Assembly: GCA_017502845.1 (NCBI GenBank)
Contig: JAFVUE010000003.1
Location: 52,025 to 116,024, forward strand
Direction of reading: 5' to 3'
Length of the DNA: 64,000 bases
Source: Clostridia bacterium
Lineage (GTDB): Bacteria > Bacillota > Clostridia > UMGS1810
Shown here: positions 54,734-62,588 of the stretch, piece by piece
How the letters are laid out: every line of letters begins with the position of its first letter
Numbering within the stretch: position 1 is the stretch's first letter
Translations under genes and position numbers: made by a program
The notes under the pieces: model-generated
What the model saw: the letters and a program-made list of their open reading frames with translations, nothing else
Told to the model about the DNA's origin: nothing
Database searches by the model: none

Positions 54734-56791
54734 TTATTCTTTCGCGTCCTCTATAATCTTATCATAAAGGTTTCTGGGTGTTTCTTCATAGTGGTCAAAT
54801 TCGAAATCAAAACTGCCTCTGCCGTTTGTGATAGCGCGGAGATCCGTTGCATAGCCAGTCATCTCGGATACGGGAACTTCCGCCACAACCTCGGTCATAT
54901 CGCCATCAAGAGGATTCATACCGAGGATTCTGCCGCGACGTTTGTTGATATCGCCAACAATGTCGCCTGTGTAAGCATTCTTTGCAAGAGCTTTCAGCAT
55001 ACCAATGGGTTCCAGCAGAATAGGATCTGCCTGTGCAAGACCTGTCTTATAAGCAATGGATGCCGCTGTCTTGAACGCCATTTCGGATGAATCTACCGGG
55101 TGGTAAGAACCGTCAAGGAGTGTTGCCTTAAGTCCAACCATGGGATAACCTGCCACAACACCCTGCTTCATGCATTCCTGCAGACCCTTTTCAACCGCGG
55201 GGAAGTAATTCTTGGGTACGCTTCCGCCGAATACTTTTTCTTCAAACACGAGACCGTCTGCACTGTCGCAGGGTTCAAATTCAATCCAGACATGACCGTA
55301 CTGACCATGACCGCCGGACTGTTTCTTGTGCTTTCCTTCAACCTTAACTTTTTTCTTGATTGCCTCACGGTAAGCGATACGCGGCGCGATGAGGTCAACC
55401 GCCACACCGAATTTGCTTGTGAGTTTGCTTGTGATAATAGCAAGGTGCTGGTCGCCTGTACCGGAGATAACCATCTGCTTTGTTTCTTTATTATTCTCAA
55501 CCTTAAAGGTGGGATCTTCTTCCATAAGTTTGGAAAGACCTGCGCTGATCTTCTCTTCATCGCCCTTTGCCTTGGGAACAATCGCCATAGAAAGAACGGG
55601 TTTGGGGAATTTGATTGCCTCTGCCTTAACAACGTTCTTGGGAGAGCAGAGAGTGTCGCCTGTGTCGGTGCAGATAAGTTTTGTTGTAGCACCGATATCA
55701 CCTGCCGCAAGAGAATCAACCTCTACCTGTTTCTTACCGCAGAGAGTGTAGAGTTTCGCAATCTTCTCGTTCTCGCCCTTGTTGGCATTTAAGAGCGTGT
55801 CGTCTTTCTTAACTGTGCCTGAAAGAACTTTGAATATGCTCATCTTACCAACATAGTTATCTACGACTGTCTTGAATACCTGCAGACAAACAGATGCGCC
55901 GCTGTCTGCCTTAACCTCAACAGGTTCGCCCTTTGCATCCTCGCAGGATACATGGTTAATCTCGTTTGGTGCGGGCATATATTCATACATCATATGGATA
56001 AGGCGGTGGATACCGATCTGCTCTGTTGCACTGCCGCAGATAACGGGAACGAGAGAACCGTCTTCAACACCCTGTTTGATAGAAACACGGATTTCTTCAT
56101 CTGTGAATTCTTCGCCGTTGAAGTATTTTTCCATCATTTCTTCGCTAACCTCGGCAACTGCTTCCAGGAGCATATCTCTGCCTTCGTTTGCAAGAGCCAT
56201 CATGTTGTCTGGAATTTCTTTATACACTGGGTCTTTTGCAGTAAAATCTTTCTGCTGCATTGTAACGATATCAATATAACCTGTGAATGTATCGCCGTTC
56301 TTGATAGGATATGTAAAGGGAGCAACGGATTTACCGAAAGTTTCCTTTAACTGATGGATAACGTTGTCATAGTCTGCCTTAGGGCTATCCATTTTGTTTA
56401 CGAAGAATACAACGGGGATGCCGTGCGCCTTCGCAAGTTCCCACGCCTTTTCTGTACCTGCAGAAACGCCTGATTTACCGCTGACAACGATAATTGCACC
56501 GTCTGCTGCAGTAACTGCCTGAATCTGTTCTCCAACGAAATCGAAATATCCGGGAGCATCTATAAGATTAATCTTGTGGTCTTTCCACATAATCGGAATA
56601 ACAGATGAATTAATGGATGTCTGTCTCTTAATCTCTTCTGCATCATAGTCAGATACAGTATTTCCGTCCATGATATTACCTTTGCGCTCGATTGCCTTTG
56701 TCTCAAAAAGCATTGCCTCGCACAGAGTTGTCTTACCTGCATTGCCATGGGAGAGCAAACATACATTTTTAATTTTGTCGGTACTTATCAT
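54734..56791 (-). CDS. Elongation factor G paralog (EF-G2-like translational GTPase) with non-canonical G3 motif
   Basis: G1 SHGNAGKTT, G3 DAPGYFDF (canonical EF-G has DTPGHVDF) and G4 NKMD; domains II-V recognisable (GKMSIFKVLSGTV..., GDQHLAII, EPI...). Confidence 0.85.
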   Translation of the reverse strand: MISTDKIKNVCLLSHGNAGKTTLCEAMLFETKAIERKGNIMDGNTVSDYDAEEIKRQTSINSSVIPIMWKDHKINLIDAPGYFDFVGEQIQAVTAADGAIIVVSGKSGVSAGTEKAWELAKAHGIPVVFFVNKMDSPKADYDNVIHQLKETFGKSVAPFTYPIKNGDTFTGYIDIVTMQQKDFTAKDPVYKEIPDNMMALANEGRDMLLEAVAEVSEEMMEKYFNGEEFTDEEIRVSIKQGVEDGSLVPVICGSATEQIGIHRLIHMMYEYMPAPNEINHVSCEDAKGEPVEVKADSGASVCLQVFKTVVDNYVGKMSIFKVLSGTVKKDDTLLNANKGENEKIAKLYTLCGKKQVEVDSLAAGDIGATTKLICTDTGDTLCSPKNVVKAEAIKFPKPVLSMAIVPKAKGDEEKISAGLSKLMEEDPTFKVENNKETKQMVISGTGDQHLAIITSKLTSKFGVAVDLIAPRIAYREAIKKKVKVEGKHKKQSGGHGQYGHVWIEFEPCDSADGLVFEEKVFGGSVPKNYFPAVEKGLQECMKQGVVAGYPMVGLKATLLDGSYHPVDSSEMAFKTAASIAYKTGLAQADPILLEPIGMLKALAKNAYTGDIVGDINKRRGRILGMNPLDGDMTEVVAEVPVSEMTGYATDLRAITNGRGSFDFEFDHYEETPRNLYDKIIEDAKE

Positions 56792-57062
56792 GATAAATCA
56801 TCCTCTCTTGATTAGGGGTATATCCCCTTTGTGTTGATATATTTCGTCCTTTAATAGGTTATATAAAATATGAATTGGTTATATAAACATATAAAAAGGT
56901 GCCGATACTTAAATAAATTCTATATCAGCAGAAAAACTCCTTTTTTATTCAGCACTTTGGCATGACGAAATATAGAGCGTTTTTATGTGCATATTGCACA
57001 AAACCCGTTTACAAAGATTATGATAAATAAGCAGAAAATTACAAAGATTTCCCCACAAAAAT

Positions 57063-57100
57063 AAAGAAACGGGGTGCTTCCGCACTCCGTTTCTTTATTT
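57063..57100 (-). terminator. Rho-independent terminator after cotH
   Basis: Stem aaagaaacgg / ccgtttcttt with additional inner pairing, followed by a T-rich run on the minus strand. Confidence 0.75.
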
Positions 57101-57102
57101 AC

Positions 57103-58716
57103 CTATTCACTATTCACTTTTTCACTATTACTTCTTACCTCAAGAGGTTTTCCGCCCATCATCTGTCCCATTATATTTATATCTATTGAAGATGCATCAA
57201 CAAGTGCAGAACTGTCTGTTCGTTGTCCCTCGGTGGTGGAGGGGATTGTTCCTGCAAGTTGTCCACGGACACTTTCGGCACGGAACTTGAGCACATCATA
57301 GAGCATATCTGCGGCCATCACGTACTCATCATAACTGTACATAGCGGTGGGATCTGCCTTCACAAGTTCGTCAATCTGTGAGCGAATGCGATTATATGTG
57401 GCATCAAATCTTCCGCTGTCGAAATACCCCGAAATCAGTTCATTATAATATTCGTGGTATTTTGCTCTGTAGGCCTCAGTGTTCAACAGGGGATCAAAAA
57501 ATGTTGTGGAACTGTATGAGTCGTCTATGGGATCGTTTACCATAGACGATGCATCACGGCTATGCATACCGCCAAATGCGAGATTATAATCCCAGGGGAG
57601 GATGTTCAGTTTTCCCCCTGATTCGTAAAGGTAGTAGTTATGTGCCATTCCTCCGCTTAAACTGTCCTCGTTGACAGCGAAATTGTGCACCGCCATATAT
57701 CTCAAAATATTGTCAACATCCATATATTTCTCTATATTGGTGGAAGTGCCGATATTTTTAAGCGCCTCTACCACACGAAGCTTTGCCGCATCGTCAACGG
57801 ATGTTTTTGCGCTGTTCCATATTGCAGAGTAACTGTCGGGATTGTCGTCGATATAGTTAAGGTTGGCACCGTTTCCGCTTCCCCGTGCGCCAAAACCGCC
57901 GAAGTTACCGCCGTCGGGACGTTTGAATTCTCCGTTCTCTCGGATTTGGCGGAATTCTTCTTCCGTTTCTTCTCTTGTCATACCCCCAAAGGGGTTTTCG
58001 CCGTTATTGCGCCTCTCGCCTCCCGTCATCTGTGGTGGCTGAAAATTATTGCTTTCGCCTTTTTCGCCACGGTTACTGAAGCCCATATTGTCGGGTTTGT
58101 AGAGATTTCCTTTTTCTCCGCCGTAATTGCGAAGCAAAAAACTGTCCTCAACGCCCTCTAATGCAAGGTATACCCCCCAATACTCGCCGTTTACGGACAC
58201 TTTGGCAAAATTATAAAGAGGGGCATCTGCACCTAGATACGAGAACATATCGTATATTATTGCCTCTTTCATAAAAGTGGCATCGGCGTATCCGTTATTG
58301 AGCACCAGTTTGTCAAGACCAAAGCAAGTCTGCCCGTCTACAAAACGGTCAAACTCCACCTTGAAACTGTAACGGTTGTTGTCGGGATCTCTCGCAATGG
58401 TAGAAAGACTCGTGTTTCCCTTGGGACGTATGCCAACTTTATAAAAACTCTCGCCGTTGATGGAAATATCACACTCATAGTATTCCTCCGCCATAGCGTT
58501 ATTCATCATTTCCTCCCACTTGGCAGATTCAATGGTAATATTTATATCAATACCGTTTTCCGTATTGAAGAGTTTTTCTTCATACTCCATGGCGTAACCC
58601 TGCACACCTACCGTAACGGCAAGTTGCTCGGAATAAATCATTCCAACTATGCACAGCACAAGTACAATGGATATTAAAACTATGCCAATCTTCGTTATAT
58701 GTTTGCTTGAAATCAT
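57103..58716 (-). CDS. cotH: CotH-family atypical protein kinase, N-terminally membrane-anchored (extracytoplasmic)
   Basis: TM segment ITKIGIVLISIVLVLCIVGMIY. CotH-type blocks LVLNNGYADATFMKEAIIYDMFSYLGADAPLYNFAKVSVNGEYWGVYLALEGVEDSFL, NLYKPD and HNYYLYE...LNILPWDYNLAFG. Confidence 0.8.
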   Translation of the reverse strand: MISSKHITKIGIVLISIVLVLCIVGMIYSEQLAVTVGVQGYAMEYEEKLFNTENGIDINITIESAKWEEMMNNAMAEEYYECDISINGESFYKVGIRPKGNTSLSTIARDPDNNRYSFKVEFDRFVDGQTCFGLDKLVLNNGYADATFMKEAIIYDMFSYLGADAPLYNFAKVSVNGEYWGVYLALEGVEDSFLLRNYGGEKGNLYKPDNMGFSNRGEKGESNNFQPPQMTGGERRNNGENPFGGMTREETEEEFRQIRENGEFKRPDGGNFGGFGARGSGNGANLNYIDDNPDSYSAIWNSAKTSVDDAAKLRVVEALKNIGTSTNIEKYMDVDNILRYMAVHNFAVNEDSLSGGMAHNYYLYESGGKLNILPWDYNLAFGGMHSRDASSMVNDPIDDSYSSTTFFDPLLNTEAYRAKYHEYYNELISGYFDSGRFDATYNRIRSQIDELVKADPTAMYSYDEYVMAADMLYDVLKFRAESVRGQLAGTIPSTTEGQRTDSSALVDASSIDINIMGQMMGGKPLEVRSNSEKVNSE

Positions 58717-58729
58717 ACAAATCTTCCTA

Positions 58730-59197
58730 TCAGTAATTCTTTCTCTTATAGAATATCACGAACACAAACGCCAATCCAAGCAAAACAACCGAGGTAATTG
58801 GAGTGGCGTATGTAGTCAGAAATCCGTAAAAAGTCATTGGCTGTGTTTCTGTCGGTTGTTGCTGCTGTTGCTGTTCCCAGGGTGCACCGCCTCTTGGGGG
58901 CTGCATACCAAACTGACCGCCGCCTTGTGAATTTCCCTCCGGCGGTGTCTGTGGATTTTGCGTGTTTTCCGCGGGTGTTACGGGTTGAACCGGTTGTGGA
59001 TTTTCTGCAGGTTCACCATTCTGCGGCATCTGCGGTCTCTCGACCTGAGGCATATTCTCGGGGTTGAATTGACCTCTGCGGGGCATATTTTCTCCTGAAA
59101 ACTGCGGCATTTCACCTGTAACAACTTCTTCGGCAGAAACAACCGCTACAGAAAGCATAAGGCATATACACAGGGCAATGGTAAATATCTTCTTCAT
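58730..59197 (-). CDS. Secreted Pro/Gln-rich low-complexity protein with C-terminal TM anchor
   Basis: Signal peptide MKKIFTIALCICLMLSVAVVSA, repeats like ENMPQ/PQMPQ/NPQPVQP, a QQQQQQ run and the C-terminal ITSVVLLGLAFVFVIFYKRKNY. The start is moved to ATG 59197 (AAGGGGA RBS). Confidence 0.65.
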   Translation of the reverse strand: MKKIFTIALCICLMLSVAVVSAEEVVTGEMPQFSGENMPRRGQFNPENMPQVERPQMPQNGEPAENPQPVQPVTPAENTQNPQTPPEGNSQGGGQFGMQPPRGGAPWEQQQQQQPTETQPMTFYGFLTTYATPITSVVLLGLAFVFVIFYKRKNY

Positions 59198-59210
59198 ATC
59201 CGTTTTCCCC

Positions 59211-59882
59211 TTACGCCATGTATTCGCCGTTGTAAGTAACCAATACGGCATTGGAAACACCTGCACTTGCAGAAAGTTTGTTTATAAAATCCGTGTTATT
59301 GTCTTTGAGACGAACTTCATAAGTAAGTTCGATACCTGTAGCATTAACTGTCTTTGCCTTGAGCAGATGTTTCTTTGCAGAAGCCGTTACCATTTCTCTG
59401 ACGGTATTCTCTGTGTCATCATCAGAACAATTCACTACAAGGATGTAGGGGGTATTGCCCACTTTTCGGGTGGAAAAAAGAACGATTATAATACCGATAA
59501 TAACAGAGCCGATAATCGCAAGTGGCAGAAGTCCTGCACCGAGAACGATACCCGCACCGATTGCCCAGAAAAGGAAAGCAATATCCATCGGTTCTTTAAC
59601 AGCCGTTCTGAAACGTACGATAGAAAGAGCACCCACCATACCGAGGGAAAGAACTACGTTGGATGTTACTGCGATAATCACAAGGCAGGTAATCATTGCC
59701 ATTGCAATCAGCGAAACGCCGAATGAATCGGAATACATTACGCCTGAATAGGTCTTTTTGTAGATGATGAATATGAACAGTCCCAGCACAAAGGCAAGAC
59801 CGAGTGCAAGGAGCACATCTACCGTTGAGAACGAATTGATGTTCGCCAGAAAACTTGATTTGAATACATCACTGAAAGTCAT
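59211..59882 (-). CDS. DUF4956 domain-containing membrane protein
   Basis: Four to five TM segments and the characteristic LSIVRFRTAVKEPMDIAFLFWAIGAGI block (family name from memory). Confidence 0.75.
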   Translation of the reverse strand: MTFSDVFKSSFLANINSFSTVDVLLALGLAFVLGLFIFIIYKKTYSGVMYSDSFGVSLIAMAMITCLVIIAVTSNVVLSLGMVGALSIVRFRTAVKEPMDIAFLFWAIGAGIVLGAGLLPLAIIGSVIIGIIIVLFSTRKVGNTPYILVVNCSDDDTENTVREMVTASAKKHLLKAKTVNATGIELTYEVRLKDNNTDFINKLSASAGVSNAVLVTYNGEYMA

Positions 59883-59900
59883 AATATTTTTCCTCTCTTT

Positions 59901-60566
59901 TTATATTCTTACTGCGGCGTACTTGGAGAATGCACCGCTACGCCGACTTTTAATCTGCACACAATTGCGGATGATTTCGGGAAGGAACTCATCCCATTTG
60001 ACCTCAATCACTGCCGTGGTCATAAGCGTTGAACAGGGCAAGTCGGGATTTAAGAATTCCCTCACGTTTGCCGAGCCGCTTATGTGGGAATCAATTGTAA
60101 CCCGAACATTTCCCGGTGCATACACAAAACTTTCACGGGTGTATGTTACGATAGACTTGGGGCGGAGCAACTGATACCGCATCTTGGCGTATAATTCCTG
60201 TTTTAAGGGGGCTCCGCTTTCTTTTAAGAAATCTATATCCCCGTCAATTATCTTACTGCACTCTTCTGCAGTAAGAGGTGCGCTAACTTTGTTGCATAAT
60301 CCGTTTATCTTGCTCTTTTTCTCAAGGCGGATAAAGGTTAAGTCATTGCCGTAGTACCGTATACGGAACTTTTCGCGGTTTCGCACACCGTCAACCTTTT
60401 CCCGAAGTGCTTTGTCGATGTAATTGTCAAAATACAAACTCTTTACCGTATATGTACCGTCTTCTCCGCAATGCTCATCTCTTTTCATCACGGCACATAG
60501 ACGGGTTTGGAGTTCTTTCATATCCGCACCGTTTATAATGTGTTTGTGTTCATGTCGGAATTTCAA
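59901..60566 (-). CDS. VTC domain-containing protein (polyphosphate-polymerase-like triphosphate tunnel fold)
   Basis: N-terminal FRHEHKH (RxExK tunnel motif), YTVKSLYFDN and REKFRIRYYG. TTG start at 60566, 8 nt after a GGAGG RBS. Confidence 0.7.
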   Translation of the reverse strand: MKFRHEHKHIINGADMKELQTRLCAVMKRDEHCGEDGTYTVKSLYFDNYIDKALREKVDGVRNREKFRIRYYGNDLTFIRLEKKSKINGLCNKVSAPLTAEECSKIIDGDIDFLKESGAPLKQELYAKMRYQLLRPKSIVTYTRESFVYAPGNVRVTIDSHISGSANVREFLNPDLPCSTLMTTAVIEVKWDEFLPEIIRNCVQIKSRRSGAFSKYAAVRI

Positions 60567-60658: not shown

Positions 60659-60692
60659 CAAAAAATCCCACAGGGGTGAATTCCTTTGGGAT
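60659..60692 (-). terminator. Rho-independent terminator after the yczE-like gene
   Basis: Stem atcccacagg / cctttgggat (one mismatch) followed by TTTTTT on the minus strand. Confidence 0.7.
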
Positions 60693-60693
60693 T

Positions 60694-61368
60694 TTATCTT
60701 TTCTTTGACGATATAATTTTTGTAATTGGTTTTGTAAGTACCGCCGTGAAGAATTTTACGAATATTCCCGTTGTAAGTGCTACAATCAGCGTTCCCTCAC
60801 GGATTCCGTGAATTTCTCCACCGAAAAGGAGCATTGATATAATAGCAGATGCCGCCACATAACATATATCAAATACTATTTTTACCATTCCGAATTCTTT
60901 TTTGAGAGTATCGCCAAACACTTTTACAAGTGCTTCACCCGAACTCATCATAACATTTGCAATCACCGCAAGAGAGATACCGAATCCGAGAACAGCCGCA
61001 CCGATTACGGACATGGCAAGTTGCATATAGTATGAATCAACCTCGATAAGCGATGTTATCATCATCCCTATATCGGTAAAATATCCGAATACCGCCGCAA
61101 GAGGTACTTGCAGAAACTGATAAGGTTTGAATTTTTTTCGGAGAATGGCAATCTGGCAGAGGAGCATAAGGAGATTAGTCAGTATAAGCCATGTTCCCAT
61201 TGTCAGAGCAGGGATTTTAATGCTCAATACATTGGCAAGTGATGACACGGGAGATACACCGAGTCCGCCCGCCTTAGTAAAGGCGATTCCAAGCCCCGAG
61301 AAAAACAGACTTATCACAAAGGTGGCGTGTCGTTTTGCTTTTTCTTTCGTTTGCATTGATTCTTTCAC
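60694..61368 (-). CDS. YczE/YitT-like (DUF6198-type) membrane protein
   Basis: FVISLFFSGLGIAFTKAGGLGVSPVSSLANVLS plus about 5 further TM segments. Confidence 0.65.
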   Translation of the reverse strand: MKESMQTKEKAKRHATFVISLFFSGLGIAFTKAGGLGVSPVSSLANVLSIKIPALTMGTWLILTNLLMLLCQIAILRKKFKPYQFLQVPLAAVFGYFTDIGMMITSLIEVDSYYMQLAMSVIGAAVLGFGISLAVIANVMMSSGEALVKVFGDTLKKEFGMVKIVFDICYVAASAIISMLLFGGEIHGIREGTLIVALTTGIFVKFFTAVLTKPITKIISSKKR

Positions 61369-61374
61369 TTCCGT

Positions 61375-61887
61375 TTATTTGTTAAAAGTTCTTACTATCA
61401 CGGGGATAAGTATAAACTGTGTGATAATACCGGGGAGTCCATACAGGAATCCATCTACAACAAACACCTGATAAGAAAACGCCTTGAATCCCATACCAAC
61501 CACAAAGGCCTTTACGATAACACGGACGATTCTGCCGACAATTATAGCAACTGTAAGGGAGCCGAACAAGCCGAAGATATTTCTCTTTCCCCACAGGTAA
61601 TACAGACTTCCTGCCACGGTGGCGTAGGTTGCGAGTTCAAACGCCATGGAGAGCGCGTCAGGCATCTGCGGCATACCGAATATGTACATACGGAGCAGGG
61701 GCGTTGCAAAGCCAACTACAAGTCCGTATTTCCAGCCGCAGATAATTCCGCACAGGATAATCGGCAGGTGCATCGGAAGAAGCGCCTCTCCTAAAAACTC
61801 AATCTGCCCCGTAAGGAACGGAAGAGTAAGTCCCAAACACATAAACATTGCGGAAAGGACAGTATTTTGCATAGTTTTCTTTCTCAT
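61375..61887 (-). CDS. ECF transporter S component (substrate unknown)
   Basis: Six-TM small protein with LPMHLPIILCGIICGWKYGLVVGFATPLL. The start is moved to ATG 61887 (GTGAGGA RBS). Confidence 0.65.
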   Translation of the reverse strand: MRKKTMQNTVLSAMFMCLGLTLPFLTGQIEFLGEALLPMHLPIILCGIICGWKYGLVVGFATPLLRMYIFGMPQMPDALSMAFELATYATVAGSLYYLWGKRNIFGLFGSLTVAIIVGRIVRVIVKAFVVGMGFKAFSYQVFVVDGFLYGLPGIITQFILIPVIVRTFNK

Positions 61888-61898
61888 ATTATATATCC

Positions 61899-62588
61899 TC
61901 ACTTAATTGTTGGCTCTACCTCAATCATATCCCCAAGGGGAAGATCGTCGGGCAGGTCGAATTCGCCGAATTTTACTCGTTTCAAGTATGTTACTGTTTT
62001 GCCGACGGCTTTGAACATCAGTTTTACCTGATGAAATTTTCCTTCACAGATTCTCACAAGGGCAGAGGGCTCTTCTTCGTGAAGTAGTGTGAGTTCCGCC
62101 TCTTTGCAGGTGTAACCACCCTCTATGGTTATGCCCTCTGCAAAGCGTTTAATATCGTCTTCTGTGGCAAGTGCATCCAGCTTGGCATAATATGTTTTGT
62201 ATACGTGCTTTTTGGGGGATAACATATTGTGTGCGTATGCCCCGTCATTTGTAAGGATGAGAAGTCCCTCTGTGTCAATATCAAGCCGTCCCACAGGGAA
62301 CAGATTAAAATGGCTGTATTCTTCGGGCACGAGGTCTATAACCGTTGGGTATTTGAAATCCTCGGTAGCACTTATGTACCCTGCAGGTTTGTTAAGCATA
62401 AGGTAGATAAATTCCCTGTATATAACAGGTTCGCCGTTTACGCATACCGTGTCAGCATTTTCGTTAATCTGCATATCGCTTTTACGGGCAATCTCGCCGT
62501 TTACAGTAACAACTCCGGATTTTACCATTGTTTTAATATCTTTTCTGCTTCCCACACCGCTGTTGCCGAGAAGTTTGTCAAGCCGCAT
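61899..62588 (-). CDS. rsuA: Pseudouridine synthase, RsuA/RluB family (S4 domain plus catalytic GRLDxxTxGL)
   Basis: MRLDKLLGNSGVGSRKDIKTMVKSGVVTVNG and VGRLDIDTEGLLILTNDG; start at ATG 62588. Confidence 0.85.
   Translation of the reverse strand: MRLDKLLGNSGVGSRKDIKTMVKSGVVTVNGEIARKSDMQINENADTVCVNGEPVIYREFIYLMLNKPAGYISATEDFKYPTVIDLVPEEYSHFNLFPVGRLDIDTEGLLILTNDGAYAHNMLSPKKHVYKTYYAKLDALATEDDIKRFAEGITIEGGYTCKEAELTLLHEEEPSALVRICEGKFHQVKLMFKAVGKTVTYLKRVKFGEFDLPDDLPLGDMIEVEPTIK

Follow-up and report, generated by a model that had tools for sequence, protein, structure and literature searches.

The locus considered here raises the question of why a cytoplasmic protein with a VTC domain, a membrane protein of the DUF4956 family, a small secreted protein rich in proline and glutamine (P/Q-rich protein) and a predicted extracytoplasmic kinase of the CotH family should be encoded side by side. 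The four open reading frames (ORFs) occupy positions 57103-60566, on the minus strand and in the transcription order VTC, DUF4956, P/Q-rich and cotH, of a 64,000-nt stretch of Clostridia bacterium DNA (hereafter the window; GenBank assembly GCA_017502845.1, contig JAFVUE010000003.1, positions 52,025 to 116,024). As far as sequence can tell, they are one tightly coupled, well-delimited operon, whose arrangement goes far beyond chance, with the gene order repeated in dozens of genomes. We are highly confident that the operon represents a conserved VTC-DUF4956-ectoprotein module: the VTC gene adjoins the DUF4956 gene on the same strand, and the third component carries a conserved N-terminal anchor. 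The best overall explanation that we can offer is a stand-alone VTC-DUF4956-CotH envelope module that would export polyphosphate (polyP) to the ectoprotein, a reading to which we assign a probability of roughly 0.35. The features of the locus are as follows.

60660 to 60695 (approximate), minus strand: terminator of the upstream YczE/DUF6198-like gene, marking the 5' boundary of the operon (hairpin dG -14.4 kcal/mol, z -3.0, followed by a U-run)
60622 to 60594, minus strand: promoter-like site TTGAAA-17-TACAGT, sigma-70-like, 5' of the VTC gene (9/12 matches in a consensus scan; a pattern match only)
59901 to 60566, minus strand: VTC-domain gene, 221 aa (PF09359)
59211 to 59882, minus strand: DUF4956 gene, 223 aa (PF16316)
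58730 to 59197, minus strand: P/Q-rich protein gene, 155 aa (assigned by hydropathy and composition; without a Pfam family)
57103 to 58716, minus strand: CotH kinase-family gene, 537 aa (PF08757)
57059 to 57100, minus strand: intrinsic terminator closing the operon (hairpin dG -23.9 kcal/mol, z -5.75, followed by UUUUUG)

An initial annotation of this DNA had described four genes on the minus strand, separated by 18, 13 and 13 nt and enclosed by two terminators, and this picture held when the junctions were read directly and the hairpins folded. The VTC stop codon TAA is followed by 18 nt and the ATG of the DUF4956 gene, the DUF4956 TAA by 13 nt and the ATG of the P/Q-rich gene, and the P/Q-rich TGA by 13 nt and the ATG of cotH, with a purine-rich ribosome-binding site at each of the three junctions. 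The VTC gene begins with TTG, with AAAGGAGG located 7 nt upstream; this start is supported by the homologues, which are 221 aa at 100% coverage. For the P/Q-rich gene, the most likely start is the ATG of MKKIF at 59197, as in all homologues. A longer ORF beginning with GTG was rejected, as it overlaps the DUF4956 gene and finds no support among the homologues.

The co-occurrence of the protein families was evaluated in 301 genomes taken evenly across the phylum, with matches spanning 40 genera and with Fisher tests that ignore phylogeny. VTC and DUF4956 were found in the identical set of 45 genomes (45/45; Fisher 1e-54), and CotH, present in 42 genomes, accompanied VTC in 36 of these 45 (Fisher 7e-32), so that the proposed association of the domains is borne out. 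It extends to physical linkage: DUF4956 lies at most 1 kb from VTC on the same strand at 49 of 53 VTC loci, and CotH at most 5 kb away on the same strand at 32 of them. Genomes of this sample with CotH only mostly encode the short sporulation type of ~360 aa. Among the control genomes, Bacteroides thetaiotaomicron, Corynebacterium glutamicum and Methanosarcina acetivorans have all three families, and B. subtilis has CotH only. The source assembly of the window (820 kb, 9 contigs, 72% complete; the sequencing runs holding the stretch are gut-metagenome DNA only) contains one VTC gene and one CotH gene. In two methanogens, Methanimicrococcus stummii (locus L059, NZ_CP131062.1) and a Methanocorpusculum metagenome-assembled genome (L090), the VTC protein is 54-55% identical to that of the window, and M. 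stummii carries two DUF4956/CotH/VTC sets side by side; a transfer between gut Clostridia and gut methanogens is suggested.

Judged by its conserved residues, the first gene product is a cytoplasmic Vtc4-type tunnel polymerase domain in which every mapped catalytic residue is kept. It matches PF09359 with an E value of 3.6e-39 and 135.2 bits (cut-off 23) over profile positions 1-228 of 235. Hydropathy analysis gave no transmembrane (TM) segment and the Pfam search no SPX domain, and the RxExK motif reads R4-H-E6-H-K8, in agreement with the original description of a cytoplasmic RxExK protein. A single-sequence search of the PDB returned no match, a homologue profile being required: the profile of 39 VTC homologues from the phylum matched yeast Vtc4 (3G3Q, E 3.6e-20), and did so better than the inactive Vtc2/Vtc3. 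Invariant in these 39 sequences are K8, K66, R68, R70, Y72, E82, K84, K93, Y142, R144, R155, D159, E188, K190 and K215, with R4, E6 and S214 nearly invariant. In the profile-to-PDB alignment, using native Vtc4 numbering derived from the offset between chains 5IIQ and 8I6V, K8, R68, R70, K84, K93 and Y142 of the window protein align with Vtc4 K200, R264, R266, K281, K294 and Y359, and R144, R155, E188, K190 and K215 with R361, R373, E426, K428 and K458; equivalents of Vtc4 R196, E279, D377 and S457 are present as well. The tunnel Lys/Arg/Glu residues whose loss would have spoken against the initial annotation are thus all conserved and map onto catalytic residues of Vtc4. The mapped Vtc4 residues reportedly line the catalytic tunnel and are functionally important. 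Besides these residues, the window protein shares with the yeast VTC complex (Vtc4/Vtc3/Vtc1; 3G3Q, 7YTJ, 8I6V) the obligate tie to a membrane protein. It differs from the yeast system in lacking SPX as well as a Vtc1-type 3-TM domain or subunit, in having an unrelated 5-TM MgtC-like protein as its partner, and in a Thr-to-Glu replacement at Vtc4 position 198.

The membrane partner matches PF16316 at E 2e-9 and 37.8 bits (cut-off 30.6) and belongs to a family with a mean identity of 70% over 55 sequences and an invariant block, ...SLGMVGALSIVRFRTAxKEP...FW.... Its multi-TM nature, as annotated initially, is reproduced by the AlphaFold2 model (predicted local distance difference test, pLDDT, 77), which comprises five TM helices and a C-terminal beta-alpha-beta-beta-alpha-beta domain. 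In a Foldseek search of the PDB, this model found its best match in the C-terminal domain of M. tuberculosis MgtC (2lqj), followed by ACT-like folds; the single-sequence PDB search gave no match. The NCBIfam MgtC/SapB model was matched weakly, at 27.9 bits versus a cut-off of 214, which is below family membership, and an hhalign comparison with an MgtC-like protein of the same genome aligned the glycine-rich TM3-TM5 core with an E value of 8e-4 at a probability of only 24%. On the basis of fold model and profiles, we read DUF4956 as a probable distant relative of MgtC that stands outside the MgtC family. It resembles MgtC/SapB in its five TM helices, its ACT-like C-terminal domain and its weakly aligning glycine-rich TM3-TM4 core, but the VRFRTAxKEP motif is specific to DUF4956, and DUF4956 is always paired with VTC. 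According to the positive-inside rule, the N-terminus would be located outside and the ACT-like domain inside, a predicted topology in which K42, K43, R90, R92 and K96 fall at the cytoplasmic face. A VTC-linker-DUF4956 read-through chain, conceivable as a pseudo-complex because the two genes are in frame, was dropped, the DUF4956 N-terminus being predicted outside the membrane and the linker measuring 7 residues. The MgtC-like protein used in the comparison is a bona fide MgtC/SapB-like protein with a GAIIGYERK motif, encoded outside the window (contig C8:106037-106750), with a GT4-like gene at a distance of ~3 kb. This protein is the only other match of the genome to the DUF4956 hidden Markov model (HMM), and a weak one.

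The fourth gene product is predicted to be an outward-facing, N-terminally membrane-anchored CotH kinase with intact catalytic residues. It matches PF08757 (E 5.7e-64, 217 bits) and aligns with B. cereus CotH (5JD9, E 2.5e-13). B. subtilis CotH is inactivated by mutating D228 or D251; the corresponding residues are D351 (in N-E-D) and D376 (in P-W-D), both nearly invariant among 26 operon-linked CotH proteins, and N360 aligns with the Asn of the D-x4-N motif. Hydropathy indicates a single N-terminal TM helix (residues 10-28) with K5 and K9 on its N side, and the kinase domain is on these grounds predicted to face outward, in line with the extracytoplasmic topology proposed initially; several homologues have lipoprotein-type signals instead. 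Compared with Bacillus CotH (5JD9/5JDA), the window protein belongs to the same atypical kinase fold family and keeps the catalytic and metal-binding Asp residues, but it is predicted to be membrane-anchored and exported rather than part of a spore coat, is longer (537 versus ~360 aa), has a low-complexity insert of ~65 residues rich in G/N/E/R, and has no CotB/CotG-like substrates encoded nearby. As to the latter, genes with Ser/Lys/Arg repeats are absent from its surroundings, and the N-terminal signal anchor does not fit a location in the spore coat. At window positions 57720-57920 (CotH residues ~215-290), a G/N/Q/M/R-rich insert lies inside the folded domain, and similar low-complexity segments (GGFGG, GMGMRGG, PPQM) are found within the folded domains of CotH and of the beta-helix protein Cthe_2159 (also at L003 and L044) and in their tails.

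Variation was seen in the gene that follows DUF4956. We assembled a context set of 40 loci from the phylum sample and 83 from public records, clustered their ORFs and assigned Pfam families to the cluster representatives. In the 74 close loci, the gene after DUF4956 encodes CotH in 40 cases and Cthe_2159 (PF14262) in 17, both of them exported proteins; among the 40 sampled loci, Cthe_2159 follows DUF4956 in six. CotH and Cthe_2159 partners have an N-terminal segment in common, which reads MSTHKxID+ICxxxxxxxLxxTxLFMNGExLGI in most lineages and MISSKHITKIGI... in the clade of the window. An HMM built from 45 CotH N-termini alone recognized, with a best E value of 8e-17, 17 of the 19 Cthe_2159 partners but not one among 1321 other ORFs, and it matches the window CotH at E 8e-8 (whole-genome ORF set). 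On the DUF4956 tree, the type of partner changes 7 times, with well-supported branches forcing at least 4 changes. From the anchor HMM and the switches on the tree we infer that one conserved membrane anchor can carry different ectodomains; most simply, this anchor would dock on the DUF4956/VTC core. The third genes of loci with neither CotH nor Cthe_2159 seem unrelated, and the anchor is absent from them. At L010, L011 and L012 (in genomes G008, G172 and G236), the neighbour of VTC/DUF4956 encodes an exported protein with leucine-rich repeats and a lamin-tail domain, which may represent a third partner type; the CotH proteins of these three genomes measure 860-1070 aa and are encoded 28-47 kb from VTC/DUF4956.

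The gene set itself has precedents. In streptococci, clostridia and bifidobacteria, accessory cotH, VTC and DUF4956 genes that follow pelDEADAFG have been described (Whitfield et al. 2020, PMC7112168). In S. intermedius (SIR_1592-1594), deletion of the CotH gene lowered Pel and deletion of the DUF4956-like gene raised it; aggregation was reduced in both deletion strains, and the VTC deletion caused no visible change in aggregation (mBio 2025, PMC12345266). The initial statement that the set has no experimentally defined function thus stands as far as biochemistry of bacterial VTC proteins is concerned, of which we found none, and has to be given up as to the gene set, which had already been published with deletion phenotypes. 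The same 2025 study stated the triad to be absent outside pel loci (PMC12345266), a claim that fails for this phylum. Most sampled copies of the VTC-DUF4956-CotH set lie outside pel loci: pel genes (PelF, PelG, DUF2194) were present in 5/40 loci, glycosyltransferase family 2 (GT2) 'chitin-synthase-like' and HEAT-repeat genes of the NELoc-2 type in 2/40 (L023, L026) and another GT2 set in 2 more, and neither pel nor GT2/HEAT-repeat genes occurred among the 74 closest loci. Likewise, HMMs from Pfam-verified genes of related loci detected no PelG, PelF, DUF2194 or GT2 set in the window or its own genome. With the pel-accessory set, the window operon shares the same three families, with VTC in the cytoplasm, an MgtC-like protein in the membrane and CotH as a secreted protein; it differs from it in the absence of pel, DUF4832 and glycoside hydrolase genes, in a CotH without FN3, and in the extra P/Q-rich anchor gene. 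For C. perfringens NELoc-2, VTC, 'tubulin-like' and CotH genes have been listed (Lepp et al. 2010, PMC2879425). There, VTC, a membrane protein of ~225 aa and CotH stand in a row as in the window, but in loci of this type they are followed by a ~700-aa protein, a HEAT-repeat protein and a GT2 'chitin synthase', none of which is present in the window. The window operon is a further copy of an already described gene set, with a locally split ectoprotein and a minimal genomic setting. What is new here are the mostly non-pel copies, the 5-TM MgtC-like nature of DUF4956, the exchange with Cthe_2159 on the same anchor, and the P/Q-rich protein as a detached stalk.

According to the export reading, the VTC protein would dock, on the cytoplasmic side of the membrane, to the basic ring of DUF4956 formed by K42, K43, R90, R92 and K96, and would synthesize polyP from ATP; the polyP chain or its phosphoryl groups would be delivered to the outer face, where the tethered ectoprotein would use the delivered product on a cell-surface polymer or protein, as a kinase here and as a Cthe_2159 beta-helix binder in relatives. 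Synthesis of polyP on DUF4956, its transfer outside and its use by CotH are suggested by the yeast analogy in combination with the obligate VTC-DUF4956 pairing and the outward anchored third component. In yeast, polyP synthesis by Vtc4 is coupled to translocation through the VTC membrane subunits. The partner switching on the DUF4956 tree agrees with a membrane dock that stays conserved while ectodomains are exchanged, and the location of some module copies within exopolysaccharide loci (pel and GT2 types) likewise counts as support. The individual steps differ in their standing. Passage of polyP across the membrane via DUF4956, argued by analogy, appears tentative and rather doubtful to us, and it seems improbable that CotH would take polyP as its phosphoryl donor. 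The boldest version, a split VTC machine independent of PPK in which the MgtC-like protein would thread polyP outward for use by interchangeable tethered ectoproteins, with CotH acting as a polyP-driven ecto-kinase, is a long shot of the same order.

Several points weigh against export to the ectoprotein. We found no biochemical test of any bacterial VTC protein in the literature, and we know of no kinase of the CotH fold that uses polyP. The membrane part of DUF4956 contains no charged residues. MgtC is known to act as a regulator that binds other membrane proteins rather than as a channel, so that the MgtC-like character of DUF4956 counts against export. Some genomes have VTC-DUF4956 without an exported partner nearby, and the unequal phenotypes of the S. 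intermedius deletions disfavour a simple linear pathway. The initial annotation saw in VTC plus DUF4956 a device for supplying a phosphoryl donor to the kinase; as CotH has repeatedly been exchanged for a non-kinase beta-helix protein, the VTC-DUF4956 core cannot in general serve to donate phosphoryl groups to a kinase. Finally, the co-occurrence statistics carry the neglect of phylogeny mentioned above, and the absence of PPK from the genome is provisional: PPK1, PPK2 and Ppx-GppA gave no match in the 72%-complete assembly.

The main rival, quite possible even if we would not call it probable, is that the module serves for regulation or sensing: the ectodomain would bind or modify an external polymer and DUF4956 would signal to the VTC protein, which in turn would make or hydrolyse cytoplasmic polyP or triphosphate and thereby adjust phosphate, energy or exopolysaccharide metabolism. 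The MgtC-like character of DUF4956 with its ACT/ferredoxin-like cytoplasmic domain is in line with this notion, as are the opposite effects of the DUF4956-like and CotH deletions on Pel in S. intermedius and the VTC-DUF4956 pairs that occur without an exported partner, and the exchange of ectodomains while the anchor is kept is characteristic of receptors. Moreover, an OmpR-type response regulator and a histidine kinase adjoin the operon in 25/74 close and ~16/40 sampled loci. The window and its own genome, however, have no dedicated two-component system; a pair on C3 was considered as an orthologue of the operon-flanking system and rejected, being only ~40-45% identical and having a longer kinase. 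A pure sensor would also have no need of the conserved catalytic residues of CotH, and the Vtc4-type residues of the VTC protein point to polymerase chemistry.

Alternatively, polyP might be exported without serving CotH as a donor: surface or extracellular polyP would be bound, anchored or trimmed by the ectoproteins and the G/P/Q/M-rich stalks, and CotH would use another donor. The repeated replacement of CotH by Cthe_2159, a non-kinase Ca-binding beta-helix protein, can be explained in this way, and the similar low-complexity segments in both partner types and in the P/Q-rich protein would fit as well. With a net charge of -8, the P/Q-rich ectodomain would, however, require cation bridges for polyP binding, and overall we regard this alternative as unlikely.

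A further possibility, emphasized in the initial annotation, is that the P/Q-rich protein serves the CotH kinase as a dedicated substrate or scaffold. Its gene lies immediately upstream of cotH in the same operon. The annotated layout of a secreted, disordered and C-terminally anchored protein was reproduced by our hydropathy analysis, which gave a signal peptide (VSA/EE), an ectodomain of 98 residues with 39% P+Q, and a C-terminal TM helix followed by KRKNY. The ectodomain, rich in P/Q/E/G/N, is predicted to be disordered and outward-facing, and B. subtilis CotH phosphorylates low-complexity coat proteins. The composition of the ectodomain is less inviting: at its net charge of -8, it has no Ser/Lys/Arg repeats, and its Ser and Thr residues number only 2 and 6, respectively. 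No homologue was present in the 40 distant loci, and the protein could have been taken for a lineage-specific insertion without relatives, a view overturned by closer relatives and by an HMM of its C-terminus. In the seven closest loci, an orthologue stands before cotH (L043, L046, L049, L050), after cotH (L047) or after Cthe_2159 (L044, L052), and all eight copies share the near-identical end ...TYSTPI(I/T)SVVLL.FAFVFVIFYKRKNY. In most other lineages, longer CotH (25/42) and Cthe_2159 (10/18) proteins themselves end in a G/P/Q/M-rich stretch, a TM helix and a Lys/Arg-rich terminus; the window CotH ends after MGQMMGG, exactly where the fused tails of its relatives start, and the HMM of the last 48 residues of the P/Q-rich protein matches such fused CotH tails in the next-closest locus (L053, E 8e-5) and in L032. 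Based on this shared C-terminus, the P/Q-rich gene is best read as encoding a detached C-terminal stalk and anchor of the ectoprotein, provided with a signal peptide of its own. The paucity of Ser/Thr and the pairing with the non-kinase Cthe_2159 argue against a dedicated CotH substrate, and the role of special substrate or scaffold is hence improbable for a segment that corresponds to the stalk and TM anchor fused to both partner types in relatives. Phosphorylation of the P/Q-rich tail, in cis or in trans, is nonetheless conceivable.

That the four genes are functionally unrelated and merely co-transcribed neighbours is effectively refuted by a synteny kept across families, phyla and archaea and by the shared anchor module.

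Returning to the export reading, its consequences would be considerable. If polyP were made by the VTC protein and passed across the membrane, the module would constitute a second, PPK-independent route of bacterial polyP formation and would provide the first known phosphoryl source for an extracellular kinase; a polyP-driven CotH would explain how surface molecules could be phosphorylated where ATP is absent. Since none of PPK1, PPK2 and PPX was found, the VTC protein would be the only recognisable polyP enzyme of this genome. In the phylum sample, PPK1 is present in 52/301 genomes and absent from 29 of the 45 VTC genomes; it is nonetheless enriched among VTC carriers (16/45 versus 36/256, Fisher 0.001), so that the presence of one polyP enzyme does not rule out the other. 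Among Clostridia of the gut and rumen the module is widespread, culturable carriers including Ruminiclostridium papyrosolvens, Anaerosporobacter mobilis and [Clostridium] aminophilum, and some copies lie in biofilm-polysaccharide loci of pathogens; its function therefore bears on cell-surface biology in general. The window offers a minimal case, a four-gene operon of a small genome in which neither PPK1/PPK2/PPX nor pel was detected and no regulator adjoins the operon. This makes it compact enough for reconstitution, and concrete handles on the interactions involved are provided by the N-terminal anchor common to both partner types and by the detachable stalk/anchor.

As for the immediate surroundings, the region upstream of the operon (window 60694-61902, minus strand) encodes a DUF6198/YczE-like membrane protein and the S component of an energy-coupling factor (ECF) transporter, with no ECF ATPase or T genes adjoining the S component in the stretch examined. 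The downstream neighbour (window 54734-56791, minus strand) encodes an EF-G-like GTPase of 685 aa, an EF-G paralogue in which DAPGYFDF replaces the usual DxPGH motif.

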